The notes beneath the pieces were generated by a model, which ran no database searches, was not told where the DNA came from, and saw only the letters and a program-made list of their open reading frames with translations. A stretch of DNA of 64,000 nt from an uncultured Chloroflexia bacterium. Lineage in GTDB: Bacteria > Chloroflexota > Anaerolineae > Anaerolineales > UBA4823. Numbering within the stretch: the stretch's first letter is position 1; every line of letters begins with the position of its first letter. This document shows, in pieces, positions 5,027 through 63,731 of the stretch. Position numbers and translations under genes: made by a program. The DNA lies in contig CAWBGK010000020.1 of NCBI GenBank assembly GCA_963788305.1, forward strand, positions 81,390 to 145,389, read 5' to 3'.

Positions 5027-7892
5027 TTTGAAGAAGTCCCAGAACAGTTCCTTTGCTTTGATTGCCCTGTCAGTTGTGCTGGTCTCGGGAATGCTTACCC
5101 TCCTGGCAGTCGCACCCATCCAAAAATCCAACACGGATCCGGATGAAGCTCTTAATTGAGAACCCGGCAGTGTGGGTGGGTCAGAATTCGCCGTCTTTTC
5201 CGCAGGTTGTGCTTTTCCGCCACTCATTTCGCTTGGTCGATCCAGCGCCTCTGGCAGAGCTCGAAATCTTTGCAGATACCCGTTATGAGGTCTGGATCGA
5301 CGGCGCCTGGATCGGCAGGGGACCTGCCCGGTTTTCCAGGACACTTCAAGAATTTGATGTTTATAAACTTGACCCGTTCCATACCGGCACACACACCATC
5401 GCTGTGCTGGTGCAGTGGGCACCTAATATTCGCCGCTCTGAATCAACCGTTCCGCAGTTGACCGCCAGGATTTTGTCGCAGTCCGGATTTCGGAAACAAA
5501 TCTTGACAAAGACTGGCTCGGATTGGAAAGCCAGGCTCTCTGATGCATGGCAGCAGGACTCCGCTCCGGTCCATGACTGGGGTTTGATCGGCCCAACCGA
5601 GCTGCTCGACCTGCGCCGCTTACCCATGGACTGGCGCCAGCCTGGATTTCCCGACCAGGATTGGCCGGATGCCGTTTTGCTTACCCAGTCCAGAGAATGC
5701 GCTGCTCGAGCCTGTAGTTCAACCGCGTTCTATCGAGCTCCTGGCCGAGTACCGCATGCCCCTCACTATTTTGGATGCCGGTCTGCTCTCGCCGCACTGT
5801 TCCATCGTCGAAATCTCTCCCCCGGTCCCGAATCCGTACGAGCTCAAGCTCCAGGTCTCCTCCCCGACGGAATTGGTGATCGAGACGGTGTCGATATCCT
5901 ATCCATTCACGATGACCGCTGGGGTTGATGGAAACTTGCTCCATTGGGCTCCATCTCCCGAAGACCGTCTGGATGTGTTTAAAGCGTCAGCTCCTGTGGA
6001 AGCAGGGCCTCATCAGCTTGTGATCACGAACATCCCTGAACAGGGGGCCACTTTCTGCATCTCCAGGGACGGCGGCACGATCCCGCTGCTGGCTCTAGAG
6101 CAGGGGGTGCACGCTGGAAGAAGGACCCTCCTTGCAGAACTTGCATCGGATCTCACTCAGGTGCACGCCAGCCGAGACGGCAGCCGGCCTGGATTTGGAA
6201 TTCCGCAAACTGCCTGCCTATGTCGTCCTGGATGCCGGTCGGACGATCCACGGACGCATCTACCTCGAAGTTGAAGGTCCTGCCGGCTCGATTCTGGATA
6301 TCGGCTGGGACGAAAGGCTGCATACGAGCTCAAGGCGCCCGTACCCTTACCCCGGCTCGCTTTATCCGCAGTGGAACCAGGTTGACTCCTGGGTGCTCGA
6401 CGGCCGCATGCGCTCAATCCATACGATCGACGCCCGGGCCGGTCGTTATATTCTCATCGCGGTCTGGGGCGAAGGTCCAGTCAGGCTGAGCCAGATCCAG
6501 GCGCTGGAAGAACGCTATCCAATAGAACAGGTTGGCGAATTTCATTCATCAAATCCGCTTCTGGACCGCATCTGGCAGGTCGGCGTGGACACGCTTCGCC
6601 CCAATATGACAGACGCATTCACAGATACACCCTGGCGTGAGCGCGGCCAGTGGTGGGGAGATGTTCACGCCGAAAACAGGATTGCCAGGGTCGCTTTTCA
6701 GGATCAGAGGTTGCTGCGCCGCAGCCTGATATATATGGCTGATGCCTTGCAGCGCAGCGAAGCGCCAGGGTTGGTTCCAAACAATCAGGGCCTGCGCATG
6801 CTCGATTACTCGATGTTGTGGGTCCAGGATCTGGCGGGCTACCTGAAGGTTACTGGTGACAAAAATTTGGCGACGGAGTTATTTCCACGGCTATCCCAGC
6901 TGATGAAAAACCTGGAAAAGGCCGAAAATGACCGCAGCGGTCTGCTGGATTTACCCGAAGGACCCTGGTCTGAGACCGCCTATATCGATGTTGCAGCCAG
7001 GCTGAGCCGGTCTGGACAGTCTGCTGCTTTGAACTCAATCTATTATGAAACGCTGAAACAGGCCGCCTGGGTCGCAGATTTCACAGGTAGATCTACAGCC
7101 GCCCGCAGATGGACGAATAAATCGGAAAAAATCCGGTCGGCGATCAATAACCTCCTTTATCGGCCTGAGGATCATCGCTATCTTGCGAGTCTCTCTGAAA
7201 CAGGTTATTCTAATCCCACCGTCCACTCCCAGGCCTGGCCGCTCGCATTCGATATCATTCCAGAGGATCAGCGCATACAGGCAACCAAGTCTTTGCTGGA
7301 GATGATCCCGCCAGATCCGGCGAAATCAACGTTCGGGACCTATGGTATGTTATGGATCCTGGAAGCCCTCGGAAATGCAGGCTTTTTTCAGCAGGCTGTC
7401 GCCTTGATCGAGGACTATTATGGATATATCCTTCAATCGGGCGCTCAGACCTGGTGGGAGGGGTTCCACGCCGGGGAATATCCAGAAACCAGCATATCTC
7501 ACGGCTGGAGCGGCGCTCCCACATGGTTCCTGACGAATTTCATCCTCGGCGCCCGTTCAGACGATCTGGATAGATGGGTCGTGCGCCCCTCTTTTTCAGC
7601 AGTCGGGCGAGCCGCAGGTCGGCTGCCGCTTGCCAGTGGGGTTCTGGAAGTCGAATGGCAGAATCCTGGATGCGGTGAAAGTAATCTCACGATTTCAGCC
7701 CCGCTCCAAACTCGTGGCGAGGTCGTCTTCCCAAATTCCTGGCAAAATTTAGAGCTTCTTCTGGACGGCGAAAGCATCTTGGGCCTGGAACCGACGATAC
7801 AATTCAATGGATTTCAAGACCTCCAGGGTACCCACATTTTCCTGGAAGGCGGCGCCCACGCGTTCTCCGCCCGCTATCTGTGCATTCCATGA
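5027..7892 (+). CDS. Secreted/membrane-anchored alpha-L-rhamnosidase-like protein (GH78), split by indels
   Basis: N-terminal hydrophobic leader MKKSQNSSFALIALSVVLVSG; FADTRYEVWIDG; DTPWRERGQWWGD; TWWE; SHGWSGAP. Confidence 0.85.
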
Positions 7893-53507: not shown

Positions 53508-53526
53508 CCCGCCTATCTGAATTGCC

Positions 53527-53910
53527 CAACGGCTATGATGGAAACGAGTACGCTGATCCCTACCTGACAGCGATCCCGGGGCAATGGGTGCAAGCCGGGA
53601 CAGGCCTCCAGCCGAAAATCCTTCCGGAGTCGCGAGCAGAAATGGTTATTGGTTGTTAGTTATTGGTTCTTTGTTCTTGGCAGGAAAGTGTTGATCATAA
53701 GTTGTATTAAATGCCTTAAACTAACAACTAAAAAACTAATCACCAAAAACCAAAGTAATCCCCGCCGGGTCCGTCCCCCGTTATCCTCGACGCAGGCATC
53801 GCCGATTTCAACCTCGGCGCCTGGCCGAGCTGCCCGCCTCTGCGCGGGAAGCAGGGTGGTACCGCGGGAGCTTTCTCTCGTCCCTGGATTTGGACGGGAG
53901 TTCTTTATTT
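53527..53910 (+). ncRNA. Ile T-box riboswitch (transcriptional) with expanded stem II
   Basis: GCTATGATGGAAACGAGTA 5' stem I, AGCGA and GGTG boxes, specifier ATC 53618-53620, CCGTTA box, T-box AAGCAGGGTGGTACCGCG 53849-53866, terminator 53875-53910. Confidence 0.93.
53644..53752. repeat. Inverted pair of heptamer tandem arrays inside the T-box
   Basis: GGTTATT GGTTGTT AGTTATT GGTTCTT TGTTCTT ... TTAAACT AACAACT AAAAACT AATCACC AAAAACC. Confidence 0.85.
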
Positions 53911-53954: not shown

Positions 53955-56900
53955 ATGCCATTCAAAGAAGTGCCGACGAAGGTCGATTTCCCTGCCCAGG
54001 AGCGCGAGCTGCTGCGCTTCTGGCACGAGACGGACGCCTTCACCAAGCTCAGAAAAATCCACGCTGACGACCCGCACTGGTCGTTCATCGACGGTCCGAT
54101 CACCGCCAACAATCCGATGGGCGTCCACCACGGCTGGGGACGCACCTACAAGGACCTCTACAACCGCTTCTACACGATGACCGGCCGCAAGCTGCGCTAC
54201 CAGAACGGCTTCGACTGCCAGGGTTTGTGGGTCGAGGTCGAAGTCGAGAAGGCCAAAGGCTTCACCAGCAAGAAGGACATTGAAGAATTCGGGCTGGACA
54301 ACTTCGTGCGCATGTGCAAGGCCCGCGTCCTGCGCTACGCCGCCGTCCAGACCGAGCAGTCCGTCCGCCTGGGCTACTGGATGGACTGGAACGATCCGGA
54401 CGAGCTGCGTATGCTTGCCGACCTGATCGAGACCGATCCGCTGAAGGTCATCACCGTTCAGCGCCCTGAAGGCCCGTTCACTGAAACAGTCGAGCAGATC
54501 ATCGGTCAGCTCGGGCTTAAAGACCTGGCCGGGAGCTACTTCACGTTCTCGAACGAGAACAACTATATGATCTGGACCTTCCTCAAAAAGTGCTGGCAGA
54601 AAGGCTGGCTGTTCCGCGGCGTCGATGTGATGCCGTGGTGCCCGCGCTGCGCGACCGCGATCAGCCAGCACGAGATCGTCACCGACGGCTACGCCGAGCT
54701 GACCCACCGCAGCGTCACCCTGCGCTTCCCGCTGCTGGGGCACGAAAGAATCCCTGTTGGTTTGGACCACCACACCCTGGACGTTGAGCAGCAATGTCGC
54801 GGCCGCAGTCGGCCCTAACCTGATCTACTGCAAGGTCCGCCAGGGCGACGAAGTCTTCTACCTCTCGAAGGGTACGCTCCACATGCTTCGTGGCCCGTAT
54901 CAGCTGCTCGAAGAGCTGAACGGCTCGCAGATGGTCGGCTGGACTTATTCCGGTCCGTTCGACGACCTGCCCGCCGAACAGGAAATCGGCGGCCACACCG
55001 TCCTGAAAGAGCTGGCTCGCGACGTCAAATTCAGCGCCGTCCAGTCTCACCAGGTGATCCCGTGGAATGAGGTCGGCGAGACAGAAGGCACAGGGATCGT
55101 CCATATCGCCCCTGGCTGCGGCGCCGAAGACTTTCAGCTCGGCAAACTGCACCATTTCCCGTTGGTCGCCCCGCTGGACGAAGAAGGCCATTTCGTTGAA
55201 GGATTCGGCTGGCTGAGCGGGCGGCATGTCAGCGAGATCGCCGACCCGATCTTCGAAAATCTGCAGCAGAAGGGCCTCCTCTATCAGGTCGAGCCCTACA
55301 CCCACCGATACCCCACCTGCTGGCGCTGCAAGACCGAGCTGGTCTTCCGGCTTGTCGACGAATGGTTTATCAGCATGGGCGAGACCTACGATAAGCCGCG
55401 CGAAGAGCTGACCTTCGAAGAAAAAGAGCGCAGCCTGCGTTACCAGATCATGGACGTGGTCGACCAGATCCGCTGGATTCCCGAGTTCGGCTACTCCCGC
55501 GAGATGGACTGGCTTCGCAACATGCACGACTGGATGCTCAGCAAGAAGCGCTACTGGGGGCTGGCCCTGCCTTTCTGGATCTGCGAGAAGTGCGGTGAGT
55601 ACGAGGTGATCGGCGACGAACACGAGCTTGAAGCGCGCGCCATCGAAGGCTGGGAGGCATTCGCAGGGCACACACCCCACCGCCCCTTCATTGATTCTGT
55701 CAAGCTCGAGTGCCCGCACTGCAAAGGCCGGATGAACCGCATCCTGGATGTCGGCAACCCCTGGCTGGACGCCGGGATCGTCTCGTTCAGCACCCTCCGC
55801 TACCGCACCGATCCAGATTACTGGCGCTCCTGGTACCCCGCCCACTGGATCAGCGAGTTCGTTCCCAGGCCAGTTCCGCAACTGGTTCTACAGCCTGCTC
55901 GCGATGGCGACCGTGATCGACCGCAGTGCGCCGTTCCTCGAAAACTTCGGATACGGAACCCTGCTGGCAGAAGACGGGCGCCCGATGCACAAGAGCTGGG
56001 GCAATATGATCGAGTTCAACGAGGCCGCCGACAAGATGGGCGTCGACGTGATGCGCTGGCTCTACTGCGCCCACAAACCCGAAAACGACCTGATCTTCGG
56101 CTACAACCGCGGCGACGAAGCCCGGCGCTCCTTCTTGATCCCGCTCTGGAACGCCTACAGCTTCCTGGCGACATACGCCAACCTGGACAATTGGTCTCCA
56201 GCAGAGGATGAAGTCAGTCCCCGCTCTGCGAAAGGGGAAGAGCGCAGAGGGTTTCGATCCGCATAACCCTGAAGGTCCCACGCCTCACAGCGAAAACCTG
56301 CTCGACCGCTGGGTGCTTGCTCGCCTGAACCAGGTCATCCCGCTCGTCTCGGAGGCCCTGGCGAATTCCGATTCGAACACCGCCACAGGCTACATCGCCG
56401 CCTTCCTGGACGACCTGACCAACTGGCACATCCGCCGCAGCCGCCGCCGCTTCTGGAAGAGCGAGCACGACGGCGATAAAAACGCTGCCTATGCCACCCT
56501 TTACCACGTGATGGTAAAGTTCGCCCGCCTGCTGGCGCCCTTCATTCCGTTTGTCACCGAGGCGATCTACCAGAACCTGGTGCGCTCGGTCTATCCGGAT
56601 GCCTTTGAAAGCGTCCACCACACCGCCTGGCCGGCCGCCGACTTTGATGCGGTCGATCCTGAGCTGCTCGAGCAGATGGACGTCGCCCGCCAGGTGGCCA
56701 GCCTGGGGCTCGCGGCTCGCAACAGCGCCGGGCTGAAGGTCCGCCAGCCGCTCGCCCGCGCTCTCGCATACGCCGGCGGTCGGAGCACGCTGCGGCCCGA
56801 GCTGGTCGAGATCGTCGTCGACGAGCTGAACGTCAAACAGCTCGAGTTCGTCGAGCAGGCCAGCCAGCTTGTCCGGTATCACGTATTGCCTGACAACAAG

Positions 56901-57408
56901 CTGCTCGGCCCGCGTTTCGGCGCCCGCTTCCCCAGGGTGCGCCTCGCGCTTCAGGCCGCCGACCCGGGCGCCGTCGCCGCGAGCGCCGCAGCCGGACAGC
57001 CCTTCGTCCTGGACGTGGATGGAGAGCAGGTCGAGCTTGCCCCGCAGGAGATCCTCATCCAGACCCAGCCCGCCGAAGGGTTGGCCGTCGCGTTCGATAA
57101 GCTGGCCACCGTGGCAGTCGATTTCGGCGATCACCCCCGAGCTGCGCGCCGAAGGCCTCGCCCGTGAAGTCGTCCGCCGCATCCAGGCGATGCGAAAGGA
57201 TGCCGGGTTCGAAATCTCCGACCGGATCACCACCTGCTATCAAACTTCCGGTGAATTCCTCGAGATTTTCAAGGATTGGGCGGACTATATCAAGGCCGAG
57301 ACGCTGACGACCGATCTGGTCGAAGGCGAGCCGCCTGCCGGCGCTTACCGCGAGACCCAGCAGGTGGAGGGACAGCAGATCACCTTAGGAGTGATGCGCA
57401 AGGGATAA
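53955..57408 (+). CDS. ileS: Isoleucine--tRNA ligase (type 2), split by four indels
   Basis: GPITANNPMGVHH, WTTTPWT, GTGIVHIAPGCGAED, PMHKS, NWHIRRSRRRFW; indels near 54745, 55860, 56250, 57122; Ile T-box upstream. Confidence 0.95.
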
Positions 57409-57412
57409 TCCA

Positions 57413-58443
57413 ATGAGCGCTGACGTTTTCGAACAGATCCGTTCGAACCTGCTTGAAAAGCGGGCCAACTTGACCGAATGGCTCGAGGCATCGTCCAGCA
57501 GGTGAACGCGAGCTCCGCCTGGGAATCTGCTGGCGAGCAAGCCGTTCATACCCACCTGGCCGCCATCGATCAATCTCTGGAGAACGCCGCTTGCGGCGAG
57601 CTGGGATGCTGCCAGGTCTGCCACGAAGTGGTCGATACCCGCCTGCTTCAGATGGATTACACCTCCTGCATCTGCCTTGAGCATTTCTCTGAAGAAGAAG
57701 CCCGCAGCCTGGAGCAAGAGCTTGAGCTTGCCCAGACGGTGCAAAAATCGCTGCTTCCCCAGCATGGCCCGGACACCCCTTACCTGGAAGCGGCCGCCTT
57801 CAGCCGCCCGGCCCAGGTGATCGGCGGTGATTATTTTGATTTCTTTCAGTTCGGGGATGGCTCGCAGGGTCTGGCGGTTGCGGATGTCGCCGGTCACGGC
57901 ATCTCTGCCGCCCTGCACATGGCCAGCGTCCAGGCGCTTCTGCGCACACTGATCCCCACCAGCAGTAGACCGGAAGAAGTGGTCAACCACATCCACAGGC
58001 TGCTTATCCATAATATTCGTTTTTCAAATTTTGTCACGATATTCCTGGCAAAATACGACCCGGTCGCCCACCTGCTGCGTTATGCCAACGCCGGGCATAA
58101 CCCCCCGCTCCTGGTCGGAGCTGACAATGGTCGATTTTCGTTGGAGTGGCTCCGCCCCACCGGCGCGGCGGTTGGCTTGCTCGAAGAATCCCTTCAGCAG
58201 GAGCGGAGCATCCCAACCCATTCCGGCGACTTCCTGGTGATGTACACAGACGGCGTCACCGAAGCGATGAACACCGCCGGTGATCAGTTCGGCTACCAGC
58301 GGCTTGCGGAGACGGTCAGCCGGGGCGTGAAAGGCTCGGCAAGTGAGATGGTTCAGGCGATTCGCCAGGAGCTTGTCGAATTCAGCGGTCCGGAACCGCT
58401 GGCAGACGATGCAACCATCCTGGTTTGCCGGCTGTTGGGCTGA
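57413..58443 (+). CDS. DksA/TraR-type zinc finger fused to SpoIIE/RsbU-type PP2C phosphatase (indel near 57500)
   Basis: IDQSL....GELGCCQVC-x17-CLEH; then GGDYFD, ADVAGHG, NAGH, YTDGVTE, DDAT. Confidence 0.88.
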
Positions 58444-58516
58444 TCAATCAGCGGCATTCCCAGGAAAGTGGATCTCCTGGTGCTCGCATCCTGAATGACG
58501 ACCTGCGATATACTTG

Positions 58517-58556
58517 AAGCGGCGCCTCCGTCCGGTGCGCCGCTTTTTGATAGAAT
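58517..58556 (+). terminator. Intrinsic terminator followed by an extended -10 element
   Basis: AAGCGGCGC...GCGCCGCTTTTT, then TGATAGAAT 17 nt before ATG 58574. Confidence 0.65.
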
Positions 58557-58573: not shown

Positions 58574-61500
58574 ATGTACAAACCCGTTCCACCCAAATAC
58601 AACCCTGTTCTGCAATGAAGAGCAGATTCTTAATTTCTGGAAGCTGCGCCGGATTTTTGCCAAAACCAGCGAGCTTCACCAGGGCAGCGCCGAATTTTCT
58701 TGCTTCGAATACCCTTCATCCGCAACCATCAAGCCCGCTGTGAGCGATATCCAGCCGCAGGCAGTTGCAAGATGTCTATCTTCGCTACCGGCTGATGCGC
58801 GGCTACCACGTCGATAAACGCAGCAGCTGGGGGGCTCACGGGCTGCCGGTCGAGATCGCAGTCGAGAAACAGCTGGGCATCCGTTCCAAAAGCCAGATCG
58901 AAGCCTATGGGATCGATCGATTTAACGCTCTTTGCCGGTCTTCAGCCTTCAAACACATCCAGGCCTGGGAGCGCTTCGCTGACAGGCTCGCATCCTGGAC
59001 GGATATGCAGAAAGCCGGCGTCACTTCTGCGAGCGAAATGATCGAATCTACCTGGTGGATCCTGAAGACATTCTGGGAGCGCGGTTATCTGGTTCAAAGC
59101 CTTCAGGTCGCTCCGTATTGCCCTCGCTGCGGCACTCCGCTTTCAAGGCATGAGGCCTCCCTCGGCAGCCGCCTAGCAGACGACAGGGCTGTTCTCGTGC
59201 GCATGCCGCTTGTCGACGAGCCTGGGACCTCCCTGCTGGTCTGGACAGACCAACCCTGGACGCTGGTCGGCAGTGTGGCTGTCGCCGCCGATCCCGAAGC
59301 AGAATATGCCCTCGTCCGCCGCGGGCTCCCCGAGGGCGGCTCTGAAAAATTGATCGTGGCCCGCCACCTGGTCGAAAAGGTCTTTGCGGACCAACCAGTC
59401 GCGGTCCTCGAGACGTTCAAAGGCAAGAAGCTCAAAGGCAGGCGCTATCACCCGCTGTTCACCTTCCTTCATCCGCAGAAGCCGGCCCATTTTGTCATCC
59501 TGCAGGATAATCCTGTTCTGGAATCAGGGTCAGGTCTGGTCAGCATTGCGCCAGCTTTTAGCGGGGATGGGTTGAAGGCTGCGATCAATAATGACCTGCC
59601 GATTCTGATGACCGTCGCAGAAGACGGCGCCTTTATTCCCGAAATTCGCCCCTGGAGCGGTCAATTCGTCAAAGACGCCGAGCCATTGATCGTCGAAGAG
59701 CTGCAGCGGCGCGGGCTGCTCTTTAGCGAAGAAACCATCACGCATTCCACGCCATTTTGCTTGTATTGCGGTTCTGCTCTTCTCCACGTTGCCCGAAATG
59801 TCTGGTCGATCCGCCTCGGCGAGCACGCAGAGCGGTTGATCCAGCTGAATCAGCAGTCCCATTTCGTCCCCTCTCATTCCAGGAATCTCGGCCTCAAAGG
59901 CTGGATCGATGGCGATGCAGAATGGATCATCAGCCGCGAGCGCTTTTGGGGTACTCCGCTCCCCATCTGGGAATGCCCCCTCTGCCGCAGCCAGATTGCC
60001 GTCGGCTCGCTCGAGGAGCTTTCCAGGTTAGCCGGACGCAGTTGTGCTCTCGATGATCTGCACAGGCCGTACATCGATCAAATCCAGATTCCGTGCCCCA
60101 AATGCAGCGGCATGATGAAGCGGGTCCCTGATGTGGTTGACTATTGGTTTGATTTCGGCTCGATCCCAGCTGCCCAGTGGCATTTCCCATTTGAAAACCG
60201 CCCGGAATTCCGCGCCCATTTCCCGGCCAATTTCATCTGCGAAGCTGCCGAGCTCGATCAAAGCTGGTTCTATTCGCTCCAGGTTGTCAGCGCCTTGCTC
60301 TTCGACAGCATAGCCGTTCAAAACATCATCCGCATCGGCCCGGTTTCATTCCTTGAGAGTGAAAAAACTTCCATATCTCCTGAGAAATTTGCCGATCCCT
60401 GGGAAACCCTGAACCAGCACGGTGCTGACGCCCTTCGCTGGCATTTCTATACCGCTTCGGGCCCTGGTCAAGCAGTCCCTTTCTCACCCGATCTGGTCGG
60501 GGTCATAACCCAGGAGTTTTTTCAGAAACTCTGGGACATCTACGCGTTCTTTATCACCCTCGCCAACCTTGACCAATTCAATCCCACCCTGCCAGCAAGC
60601 AGTGATGTTGACGACATTTCTCCCCCTCTCCCCATGGGAGGAACTCAGGGATGCCAGCCCTCCCACTCTCTTCTTGGGAGTGACACCAGCGATCACATCT
60701 CTCCCCCTCTCCTCATGAGAGTAACGCCCGGGATGCCAGCCCTGCCCACTCTCTTCTTGGAAGTGACGCCAGCGACGACATTTCTCCCCCCTCTCCCCAT
60801 GAGAGTAACGCCCGGGATGCCAGCCCTCCCCACTCTCTTCTTGGGAGTGACGCCAGCAATAACATCTCTCCCCCCTCTCCCCATGGGAGAGGGGCCGGGG
60901 GTGAGGGCTTCCTCCTCGACCGCTGGCTGCTCTCGGAGCTCAGCATCCTGATTCGCGATTCTAACCCAGGCATTCGAAGCCTACGATGTGACAGGTCGCA
61001 GCAGTTCTGATCCAAAACTTCGTAGATGACATGTCCCAATGGTACCTGCCTCGCTCCCGCCGCCGGTTCTGGAAGCGCGGCCTGGATGCAGCCTTGAATT
61101 CGGCGTACACTACGCTTCACACGACGCTGCTCAGCCTCGCTCACCTGCTTGCCCCGGCCGTGCCCTTCCTGGCAGAGGTCCTCTACCAAAACTTGCAGCG
61201 CACAATCGACCCGGCCGCTCCCGAATCGGTCCACCTGAGCCGCTGGCCAAAATTTGATCCGGAGAGAATCGACGAAAGGCTCAATGCCGAGATGCGGCTG
61301 GCGATGAGACTCGCCTCATTGGGTCATTCTGCCCGAAATCAGGCCGGGGTAAAAGCTGCTCAGCCTCTGCAGGAAATCGTATTTCAAATGGCAAGTGAAG
61401 ATGAGGCCGGGGCTATGCAGCGGTACAGAGACCTGGTTGCCGATGCGTTGAGCGTCAGGCAGGTGCGCCTGCTCGGCGAAACAGCCTTCCATCGGTTCAT

Positions 61501-61903
61501 CGCCGCTCAGGAGTTGGAGCTCAAGCCAGATGAAGTGGAAATTCCGCTCCTCGACCTGCCTGGATTTGCAGCCGCCGCAGACGGCGGCTATCAGGCAGCC
61601 CTGACCACCGCGCTGACTCCGGCCTTGATCCGTGCCGGGCTGGTCGGCGAAGTGATCCAGCGCATCCTGGACCTGCGGGTCAAAGCCGATCTTGCCATCA
61701 CCAGCCCGATCGTGGTCTTCATAACGGCAACGCCCGGGCTGTGGGATGCAGTCCAGGAAGGCCGCGAGCTCCTCCAGGGCGAGACGAACGCAGCAGAAAT
61801 AATTCAAGATAAGCCTCCCGAAGGAGTTCAAGTTGCTGAAGCCTGGTTCGGCGGGCACTGGTTGAAAATGGGCATTTCTATACCTTCACAAAATTCTCAA
61901 TAG
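58574..61903 (+). CDS. Full-length IleRS-like protein with degenerate HIGH, KMSKS and editing motifs (candidate pseudo-synthetase), split by indels
   Basis: Colinear with IleRS2 (HGLPVE, PYCPRC, ISRERFWGTPLP, GADALRW, RSRRRFW) but AVSD, KTSIS, WTDQPW and APAFSGDG at the catalytic motifs. Confidence 0.85.
60610..60907 (+). repeat. Intragenic higher-order tandem repeat (3 x ~84 bp, each two related 42-mers) ending in a CCCCTCTCCC...GGGAGAGGGG palindrome
   Basis: Units 60610-60690, 60691-60773, 60774-60857; terminal CCCCTCTCCCCATGGGAGAGGGGCCGGGGGTGAGGG. Confidence 0.9.
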
Positions 61904-61935: not shown

Positions 61936-62541
61936 ATGTTAATGAACACCGCAGCCCAGGAACCCTGGAATACCATGACCCCTCCCCGCTGGCTGGCTTC
62001 GATCTTCACCCCGCAGAACAAACCAGTCGAGCTCGAAGCTGGACGCTTTGAAGAGCTGTTCGAGCAAAACTGGGAGCCTGTCTGCAGGCTGCTCTTCCGC
62101 CTTCTCGGCGATTGGGATGAAGCCGAAGACCTGGCGTTGGAAGTGTTTCTCGAGCTGCATCGCAATCCCCCGCGCGAAAACCAGAACCTCCCCGGCTGGC
62201 TGTACCGGGTGGCGCTGAACCGGGGATTGAACGCGCTGCGCGCCCGAGATCGACGCCGCCGCTACGAGCAGCAGTCCGGCCTGGAATCTCTCAGGGCTGC
62301 CGCTTCCGCCGATCCTGCCCAGGATGTTGAGCGCAAGCTGGAAGGCGAGTTTGTTCGTGCTGCATTGCAGAAGATCAAGCCGCGCTCAGCCCGATTGCTG
62401 CTCTTGCGCTATTCCGGGCTCTCGTATGCAGAGATTGCTGCGGCGCTGGACCTGGCGCCCGGCTCGGTTGGCTCCTTGCTGGCTCGAGCAGAACAAGAAT
62501 TCGAAAGGGTCTACAGCCGCAGAAAGGAAGGGATGGGATGA
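61936..62541 (+). CDS. ECF sigma-70 factor
   Basis: AEDLA.EVF, WLYRVALN, GLSYAEIA..L....GSV...L.RA. Confidence 0.95.
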   Translation: MLMNTAAQEPWNTMTPPRWLASIFTPQNKPVELEAGRFEELFEQNWEPVCRLLFRLLGDWDEAEDLALEVFLELHRNPPRENQNLPGWLYRVALNRGLNALRARDRRRRYEQQSGLESLRAAASADPAQDVERKLEGEFVRAALQKIKPRSARLLLLRYSGLSYAEIAAALDLAPGSVGSLLARAEQEFERVYSRRKEGMG

Positions 62542-63731
62542 ATTGAAATATTGAGCACCTCACCGAAGGTCAAATCCGGGCTTATCTCGACCGCAGCCTT
62601 GAAGATCCAGATTTGATCCGAATCGAACGCCATCTTACAGACTGTTTGAGCTGCCGCACGGCCTCGGAGTCAGTTCTTGAAACGTCGCAGCGGATACAAA
62701 GCCATTTTTCCCGGTTGGACCCCAATCCAGGGTCGGATCATCCAAAATCCCTGACATCTGTCCGCTCCATTCTTGAAAACCGGATGGAATTAGAAAAGGA
62801 GAAACAAATCATGAAACCAAATGCTATCCAGCGCATTCCGCCTCCCGCATGGGTCGCCTTGGGGCTGGTCGTCGTCCTGGCCGTCGCATTGACCTTCCAG
62901 CCTGTCCGCGCCCTCGCGGAGGATTTCCTGGCGCTCTTCCGGGTCGAGCAGATCCGCGTCGTCCAGGTCAATTCGGAAAAGAGCCCGGATAAATTGGAGA
63001 GCTCCTCCAACCTGGAATATATCCTCTCCAACCAGGTCCAGCTGGAAGAGCAAGGCGAGACTCAGCAAGCGGCCGACCTCGCTGAAGCCACGGCGCTGGT
63101 AGGCTTCACGCCCCGCCTGCCGGTTGAAATCGAAGGCGAGCCGGAATTTACTGTTCATCCCGCTGGAAATTTGAGCCTGGTCGTGGACCTCGAGCTGGTG
63201 CGGGCTGTGCTTAAGGACATCGACCGCGAGGATATAAAGCTCCCGGACGAGCTCGACGGCGCGGTTGTTCAGGTCCGCATCCCGGCCAGCCTGTCCGCAT
63301 CCTTCGGCGATTGTATTTTCAGAGCCTACCCTGCTCCTGTTGACCCGGACGAACCCGAGGCGGAAGAGTGGGATTTTCGGAGCTGCACCAAACTGATGCA
63401 GGTCCCCAGCCCGGCCGTCTCAGCCCCACCGGACCTTGACCTGAACCAGATCGGCGAAGCCTATCTCCAGTTGTTTGGGATGGACGCCGAAGAAGCTGCC
63501 TCCTTTGCCCGCAGCGTGAACTGGACGACCACCTTCGTTATTCCGCTCCCGCGCTACGACGCCGATTATGAAGAAGTCCAGGTCGATGGAGTCAGCGGCA
63601 CATTGATCTATGACTACGGCATGGCAAACGAGAACTATACCCTGATCTGGATCAAAGACGGGTTCATTTATGCCCTGAGTGGCTGGGGAGGCCGTTCCGC
63701 AGCCTTGAAGATCGCCGGCTCAATCCAATAG
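62538..63731 (+). CDS. Zinc-finger (HxxxCxxC) transmembrane anti-sigma factor
   Basis: HLTEGQIRAYLD...HLTDCLSC, one TM, extracellular domain ending LIWIKDG; ATG 62538 has an in-frame TGA at codon 3 (probable error). Confidence 0.85.

Follow-up and report, generated by a model that had tools for sequence, protein, structure and literature searches.

A full-length isoleucyl-tRNA synthetase homolog without activation and editing motifs is kept under purifying selection in Anaerolineales

We analysed a 64,000-nt stretch of DNA (the window) from an uncultured bacterium of the Anaerolineales, the order to which the names of its closest database proteins point (genome G000; its closest relative is G005), and in particular a gene at 58574-61903 on the forward strand that encodes a full-length homolog of type-2 isoleucyl-tRNA synthetase (IleRS). 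This gene, which we call B', is a degenerate second IleRS; A denotes the housekeeping IleRS, encoded upstream on the same strand at 53955-57408, and B the canonical IleRS of the second lineage. B' matches Pfam tRNA-synt_1 (E 2.9e-62) over 58744-60951, and Anticodon_1 (5.9e-22) and DUF5915 (2.1e-12) over 60992-61903, where it ends in a TAG stop codon at 61901-61903. Its homology in sequence and fold covers the catalytic, editing and anticodon domains (Pfam PF00133, PF08264 and PF19302), and a 615-aa piece of it scores 488.8 bits against TIGR00392. A and B' are about 32% identical and represent two lineages that stand in tandem across the family, so that the first-pass annotation of this DNA was right in saying that B' is not a recent duplicate; the CQGLWVE signature that it gave for the neighbour is present.

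The sites of amino acid activation and of editing are degenerate in B'. Where canonical B has EGPPTANGxPGVHH, the HIGH-region equivalent (58707-58748) reads EYPSSATIKPAVSD; no histidine remains, and the site itself, KPAVSD, fits neither HxGH nor [A/G]xHH. GWDTHGLP is replaced by SWGAHGLP (58825-58848), with the Asp and Thr gone, and KMSKS by KTSIS (60364-60378), with the second Lys gone. The CP1 editing residues, that is the Thr-rich WTTTPW and the His and Asp of GTGxVHxAPxxGxxD, are missing as well: WTTTPW reads WTDQPW (59242-59259), without its two invariant Thr, and GTGLVHxAPAFGxxD reads GSGLVSIAPAFSGDG (59527-59571), without its His and Asp. At the same time, four CxxC pairs are retained between 59113 and 60111 (59113-59133, 59755-59772, 59974-59991 and 60094-60111), as is the anticodon-helix motif RSRRRFW (61052-61072), all of these features lying on the forward strand. 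The Arg at 61058-61060 within this motif aligns with R721 of Priestia megaterium IleRS2 (PmIleRS2), and the Arg at 61676-61678, which is R987 in the column numbering of canonical B, aligns with R964, so both anticodon-recognition arginines are present in the window's copy. An AlphaFold2 model of 58768-60613 has a pLDDT of 79.5, with low confidence around the former KMSKS loop (residues 530-540), and superimposes on PmIleRS2 (8c8w) with a TM score of 0.91 in Foldseek. All motif coordinates given by the first-pass annotation were reproduced exactly, and the motifs it had listed as degenerate or as retained (the four CxxC pairs and RSRRRFW) are so at those positions.

The same annotation had described B' as one IleRS homolog with a stop-free stretch of 728 codons; the homology stands and the stretch is found at 58765-60951, but the irregularity of the gene was understated. 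In this assembly B' consists of six frame segments (58574-58612, 58617-58766, 58768-~60700, ~60700-60959, 60961-60995 and 60997-61903) separated by five frame shifts, near 58614, 58767, ~60700, ~60960 and 60996. It also contains a tandem repeat (60614-60889, forward strand) of an 84-bp (28-aa) unit in 3.3 copies, which sits in the variable linker joining the catalytic core and the anticodon-binding domain. In G005 the unit occurs once (248 bp fewer than in G000), and one of the five frame shifts falls inside the repeat, where the units vary between a C5 and a C6 run. A hairpin-forming element of ~42 nt at 60866-60908 closes the repeat; it has a high summed depth and unrelated flanks, occurs in four of four metagenomes compared, and its last ~30 nt recur three more times in G000 (contigs C8 and C10). 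It resembles a miniature repeat of wide occurrence that inserted into the B' linker and was then multiplied, in frame, to give the 28-aa units.

The frame shifts in B' are probably assembly noise and do not count as evidence of decay. The G000 genome is an assembly of 22 contigs, 83% complete, and the window is colinear with G005 at ~93.5% identity, with 84 small indels in 64 kb, many of which interrupt, now in G000 and now in G005, open reading frames (ORFs) that are uninterrupted in the other genome. B' has 7-8 of these indels in 3.3 kb and gene A five in 3.45 kb. Gene A, the only canonical IleRS found in G000, is itself broken four times there, giving five frame segments, and once in G005 (the breaks in G000 include 54747, 55860, 56241 and 57124); at one break, in the context GAAAAGGAA, both assemblies are wrong when judged against the intact gene of G003. 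G005 is free of three of the five B' shifts (58614, 58767 and 60996). The extra bases at 58614, 58767, 60962 and 60993 are missing from short-read contigs that come from close relatives in two public metagenomes and are 97% and 92% identical. These contigs leave 60578-60819 uncovered, so the shift inside the repeat has no coverage. It is because of the number of indels relative to G005, the breaks in ileS A and the in-frame contigs at four of the five sites that we do not take the shifts as decay; with 1-bp indels riddling the G000 (and G005) assembly, polishing is needed before any pseudogene call.

Comparison of the two genomes showed that B' is under purifying selection. Ratios of non-synonymous to synonymous substitution rates (dN/dS) were calculated by NG86, with codons taken in the IleRS frame of each segment. 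Between G000 and G005 the ratio for B' is 0.205 (dS 0.158, dN 0.032) over 1011 codons, from 102 synonymous differences on 718 sites and 73 non-synonymous differences on 2312 sites. The three segments with at least 49 codons give 0.15-0.25, and one segment of 35 codons, with six differences, gives 0.69. If the one shift shared by G000 and G005, near 60960, were real and ancestral, the part downstream of it (60998-61900, 300 codons) would be expected to drift neutrally; its dN/dS is 0.25. Gene A gives 0.06 for the same pair of genomes, and among 20 other window ORFs tried against G005, 18 lie at 0.076-0.335, one had no aligned codons and one, ORF 6132-7892 (scored over 6200-7892), gives 1.8 with a dS of just 0.056 and is probably a shadow frame, the actual gene there being read in a different frame or on the opposite strand. 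The independent pair G113/G114 yields a dN/dS of 0.15 for B' (dS 0.55, 965 codons). For the three genomes of genus g15 (G019, G105 and G106) no ratio is given because synonymous sites are saturated (proportion of differences 0.76-0.78 at synonymous and 0.28-0.32 at non-synonymous sites). Moreover, in a substitution-only simulation of neutral evolution starting from canonical B, stop-free copies numbered 1 of 300 at 89% amino acid identity and 0 of 300 at 80% or below; the B' copies are 36-66% identical to canonical B. The ratios are far from the value of about 1 for neutral evolution, and the open frame of B' has been retained for long.

When we searched 41 related genomes and then the whole family of 137 genomes, inspecting the motifs in low-identity matches, degenerate B' copies were found in 13 genomes of eight genera (G000, G005 and G003; G060; G073; G019, G105 and G106; G119; G100; G113 and G114; G014). 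In the 11 genomes other than G000 and G005 the gene is a single intact frame of 951-1064 aa (986 aa in G003, 965 aa in G073), and a database protein, P0082 (1016 aa), which carries the NCBI name isoleucine--tRNA ligase, is partly degenerate too. An A-type IleRS is present in all 13 B'-bearing genomes, often directly upstream of B' (G003, G105, G106 and G119), which means that the loss of catalytic residues goes together with the presence of a canonical enzyme for the same amino acid. Canonical B, with the motifs EGPPTANGxPGVHH, GWDTHGLP, WTTTPW and KMSKS, is widespread among the 41 related genomes; in several genomes it is apparently the sole IleRS and there has a T-box, T-boxes being found at eight of 13 loci searched. 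By identity, at least 24 genomes have an A-then-B tandem with an apparently canonical B, and the motifs of such tandems were inspected in G007, G008, G009, G020, G022 (in part), G118 and G123. Many genomes of the family keep both IleRS lineages in tandem with apparently intact motifs, and a non-canonical GVHH form of HIGH, tied in the literature to mupirocin hyper-resistance in IleRS2, occurs in both lineages (at 54060-54080 of the window in A, and in the B genes of relatives).

The losses seen in the window recur across these copies. In an alignment, 355 columns do not vary among 16 canonical B proteins; read in 12 B' lineages, 45-86% of these columns are retained. The most eroded region is the HUP-C/KMSKS segment (16-84% kept), and ARD1 is among the best-kept regions (51-94%), above the average column. 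Positions kept in at most two of the 12 lineages include G46, T49, N51, G52 and H57 of the HIGH region (H57 in one), D86 of GWDTHG (in two), the editing residues T225/T226 (in none) and M598, K600 and G603 of KMSKS (K600 in one); the KMSKS loop is deleted or unrecognisable in most B' copies other than the window's, and wholly deleted in G003, G014, G113 and G114. On the other hand, the zinc-knuckle cysteines C182, C185, C395 and C398, and with them the first two CxxC pairs, are kept in 12/12 lineages, as are W85, H88 and R987; the last is R964 of PmIleRS2 by alignment, and the equivalent of R721 is kept in nine of 12. Pocket residues vary among the lineages and do not converge on a new motif. 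According to a preprint on PmIleRS2 (10.64898/2026.02.03.703510), R964 is assigned to recognition of G34 and R721 to that of A35/U36, and Ala substitution of either abolishes charging; both the binding of ATP and the stabilisation of the transition state are reported to require HIGH and KMSKS (10.1101/2023.01.31.526100).

By its sequence, B' appears to descend from B, the family's second type-2 IleRS lineage, which stands in tandem after the T-box-controlled A. In a 24-row tree under the C20 mixture model the B' copies form one clade inside the family's B lineage (SH-aLRT 97). A 35-row LG+G4 tree recovers a deep group made of g15, G119, G014, G100 and g63 (support 96) and does not recover B' as a whole. 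Long-branch attraction may affect either tree, and as the two disagree the degenerate state may have arisen once or several times.

The leader of A carries a T-box (53526-53888, forward strand; RF00230) that matches over the full model length with 63.9 bits (E 2.8e-12), below the Rfam gathering score of 93, and has the conserved AGGGUGGUACCGCG; no T-box was found ahead of B'. The first-pass annotation had placed B' 1.2 kb after the real ileS, and the distance is right (1166 bp from the end of A at 57408), although the gap is not empty: it holds a gene with a SpoIIE/PP2C phosphatase domain match (57478-58443, forward strand), which also follows A in G005 and G001 and not in G003. That annotation had also given B' its own extended -10 behind a terminator. 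Both elements are present (58516-58556, forward strand) and kept in G005: a GC-rich, terminator-like hairpin followed by U5 (58516-58548, -20.3 kcal/mol), and the extended -10-like TGATAGAAT (58548-56), read by eye from the sequence, 18 nt upstream of the ATG of B'. A consensus scan of the region ahead of B', however, called no sigma-70-type promoter, its single hit being a terminator-like site of five pairs. Downstream, on the same strand, 61936-63731 holds an extracytoplasmic function (ECF) sigma factor gene (61936-62541) and an ORF of 372 aa (62613-63731) without an NCBIfam match; from its position alone, our guess is that the latter might be an anti-sigma factor.

In 22 of the 137 family genomes (loci L029, L043 and L044 among them) the gene directly after B', after canonical B or after an A that stands alone encodes a two-domain NUDIX hydrolase. 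It follows B' in G003 (L024:16231-17166), G100 (L042:4451-5446), G014, G113 and G114, canonical B in G104, G107, G108 and G116, and A alone in G012, G021, G145 and G148; its NCBIfam match names no substrate, and neither G000 nor G005 was found to have the gene. We considered it as a partner specific to B' and rejected it on these grounds. Since it stands next to B', B and A alike, it is better seen as an ancestral operon member than as a clue specific to B', and its distribution hints that the ancestor had an ileS(A)-ileS(B)-NUDIX operon.

B' is a homolog of IleRS that has lost its motifs, is under selection, is conserved in several genera and always occurs together with A, and we think it likely that it is a real coding gene for a selected, non-catalytic protein derived from IleRS, which would still dock tRNA-Ile through the ARD1/ARD3 anticodon pocket. 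B' almost certainly neither charges nor proofreads tRNA, because the residues of activation (HIGH, the Asp and Thr of GWDTHG, and KMSKS) and those of editing are lost; the loss of aminoacylation would follow from established enzymology (10.1101/2023.01.31.526100), and the retained residues would be consistent with recognition of the tRNA-Ile anticodon. In the proposed course of events, the B lineage would have lost its activation and editing residues and so become B', with purifying selection keeping the fold, the zinc knuckles and the anticodon-binding module; B' would then dock tRNA-Ile and, once docked, act as a buffer, chaperone or sensor of it. What the protein does in the cell is a matter of speculation and could be any of these three, maybe with feedback on the T-box of A. 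We offer one more specific version as a tentative idea of low probability: in one Anaerolineales family the second IleRS of an ancestral A-B(-NUDIX) operon may have become a dedicated non-catalytic tRNA-Ile binder, possibly more than once, that would tune the T-box of A by holding charged or uncharged tRNA-Ile. If true, a dead synthetase would have been made into a protein that regulates a riboswitch. The first-pass annotation had already suggested a selected non-catalytic role, and had said that confirmed indels, together with either no intact ortholog or a dN/dS near 1, would speak for a decaying pseudogene; we found the opposite, with intact orthologs of 951-1064 aa sharing the motif losses and dN/dS values of 0.205 and 0.15.

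Not everything fits a retained tRNA binder. The extra T near 60960 is the sole B' shift common to G000 and G005 and could be a true lesion, by which the anticodon domain would be lost from the protein, and the repeat expansion brings one further frame shift. (A basecalling error at Dam sites was tried as the source of the shared T and rejected, as GATC is not depleted in G000, with an observed/expected ratio of 1.04.) The R721 equivalent is lost in three of the 12 lineages, and most B' copies share a C-terminal deletion that falls on INS (Pm 851-925), the subdomain that binds the tRNA D-loop; active IleRS2 enzymes are themselves reported to have lost INS repeatedly (10.64898/2026.02.03.703510). 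Canonical homologs dominate the alignment on which the AlphaFold2 model leans. Branches of B' measure 0.8-3.2, against 0.2-0.3 for canonical B, that is 3-15 times longer, and the 35-row tree splits B', with G060 and G073 grouping with canonical copies and the long branches placed towards the root. B' was not found in three of the six genomes of the genus (G001, G002 and G004) and is therefore dispensable there; in G001 an unrelated ORF of 1031 aa takes its place. There is also a graded series of partly degenerate copies (G118, G123, P0018, P0019, P0045, P0075 and P0097), and the B-type gene of G070 (G070:C3:260500-266500) is in ~10 frame pieces, with two TGA and one TAA inside one match, being either a true pseudogene or another noisy long-read assembly. 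The lack of a single clade, the graded series and the shattered G070 copy also fit slow, repeated decay. Public sequencing runs matching the stretch comprised seven DNA runs, each with 5-7% of sampled words and none from the source organism, and no RNA run.

Much of this could be read to mean that the window's B' is a pseudogene on its way out, made redundant once A took over, with the open frames elsewhere as earlier stages; its five frame shifts (one common to G005), the 248-bp expansion, the absence from three genomes of the genus, the graded motif loss and the recurrent degeneration implied by the 35-row tree are what such a gene would show. We nevertheless consider it unlikely, given a dN/dS of 0.205 overall, 0.25 downstream of the shared shift and 0.15 in G113/G114, and given 11 intact ORFs where the neutral simulation left none of 300 at comparable divergence; besides, the indel rate of B' is close to that of the window and of gene A, and the relatives' short-read contigs are in frame at four of the five shift sites.

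B' might instead have gained a new catalytic or ligand-binding function in a remodelled pocket, whether by using Ile-tRNA-Ile as a donor or as a regulator that binds a nucleotide or metabolite. SbzA, an IleRS homolog that transfers Ile from Ile-tRNA, is a precedent (PMC6331615, PMC12945691), B' retains the scaffold and the tRNA-recognition residues, and in several genomes B or B' forms an operon-like unit with the double-NUDIX gene. Yet SbzA as described in these two sources has HIGH (as HYGH) and KMSKS, both of which are missing from B'; the pocket residues diverge among B' lineages, no biosynthetic genes lie near B' in the window, and the NUDIX gene, missing from G000 and G005, is found behind canonical B or a lone A as well, all of which makes a new function quite improbable in our view. 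We give even less credence to the idea that B' still works as an IleRS despite its unorthodox motifs, perhaps as a slow backup insensitive to antibiotics, and regard it as very improbable: the HIGH position has no histidine, the editing residues have been lost, G000 lacks the second Lys of KMSKS and G003, G014, G113 and G114 lack the whole loop, the Asp of GWDTHG survives in just two of 12 lineages, and rates are 3-15 times those of canonical B. In its favour, the B lineage has the GxHH variant of HIGH, which has been tied to mupirocin hyper-resistance (10.1101/2023.01.31.526100), second IleRS genes are reported often to act as resistance genes (PMC9437257), and the G003 copy scores 738 bits against an NCBI ileS cut-off of 621 bits.

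That last score has a practical side, as B' genes pass the NCBI ileS cut-off and so receive, without any warning, the annotation of an active enzyme. Counts of duplicated IleRS genes and of putative resistance genes of the mupirocin type are distorted as a result; the set of 96,219 IleRS sequences in the preprint cited above (10.64898/2026.02.03.703510) may contain B'-like copies. A full-length IleRS without ATP-site motifs or an editing site, selected in eight genera, would show, as a clean natural experiment, what an aminoacyl-tRNA synthetase scaffold can be used for once catalysis is lost, and the intact orthologs of G003, G113 and G119 are directly testable proteins. The first-pass annotation knew of no described inactive full-length IleRS, and our search, which took in open-access text and bioRxiv, agrees, as it found none.

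Among known systems, B' is closest in build to the bacterial type-2 IleRS itself. Its G003 ortholog matches the Thermus thermophilus enzyme (1ILE) at E 1.2e-246, and B' shares with PmIleRS2 (8C8U/8C8V/8C8W) and with MupA/MupB the domain order, the DUF5915 C-terminus, the zinc cysteines and the R721 and R964 equivalents. Unlike them, it has lost HIGH, KMSKS, the Asp and Thr of GWDTHG and the editing residues, has INS (Pm 851-925) deleted, has no T-box and evolves much faster. As far as sequence can tell, B' belongs with the inactive synthetase paralogs; there is good evidence for a real gene under selection, and its function is assigned by inference. In terms of function, the closest analogues would be HisZ, LeuRS-I and LeuRS2. 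HisZ, which is class II, shortened and without an anticodon domain, has a known partner enzyme, whereas B' has no known partner. The likeness is that HisZ, a HisRS paralog serving as regulatory subunit of ATP-phosphoribosyltransferase, is also a catalytically inactive paralog kept for a role other than aminoacylation (PMC9437257). LeuRS-I of Sulfolobaceae and LeuRS2 of Halobacteria resemble B' in being full-length class Ia paralogs beside a housekeeping enzyme; the same source describes their charging as lost or weak, their tRNA binding as retained and their function as unknown, with LeuRS-I needed for optimal growth (PMC9437257). They differ from B' in the synthetase and in the domain of life (archaea), and LeuRS-I still forms the adenylate, with a working ATP site, whereas B' is without both ATP-site motifs. 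SbzA, of SB-203208 biosynthesis, is like B' an extra IleRS copy, and its non-translational job depends on tRNA-Ile (PMC6331615); it keeps HIGH/KMSKS and weak aminoacylation and sits in a biosynthetic cluster, neither of which holds for B'. No IleRS paralog other than SbzA is known to have a described non-translational role. HisZ and LeuRS-I show that translation enzymes are recruited to new roles, and B' may be a case in which a whole IleRS was recruited as a binder of its tRNA.

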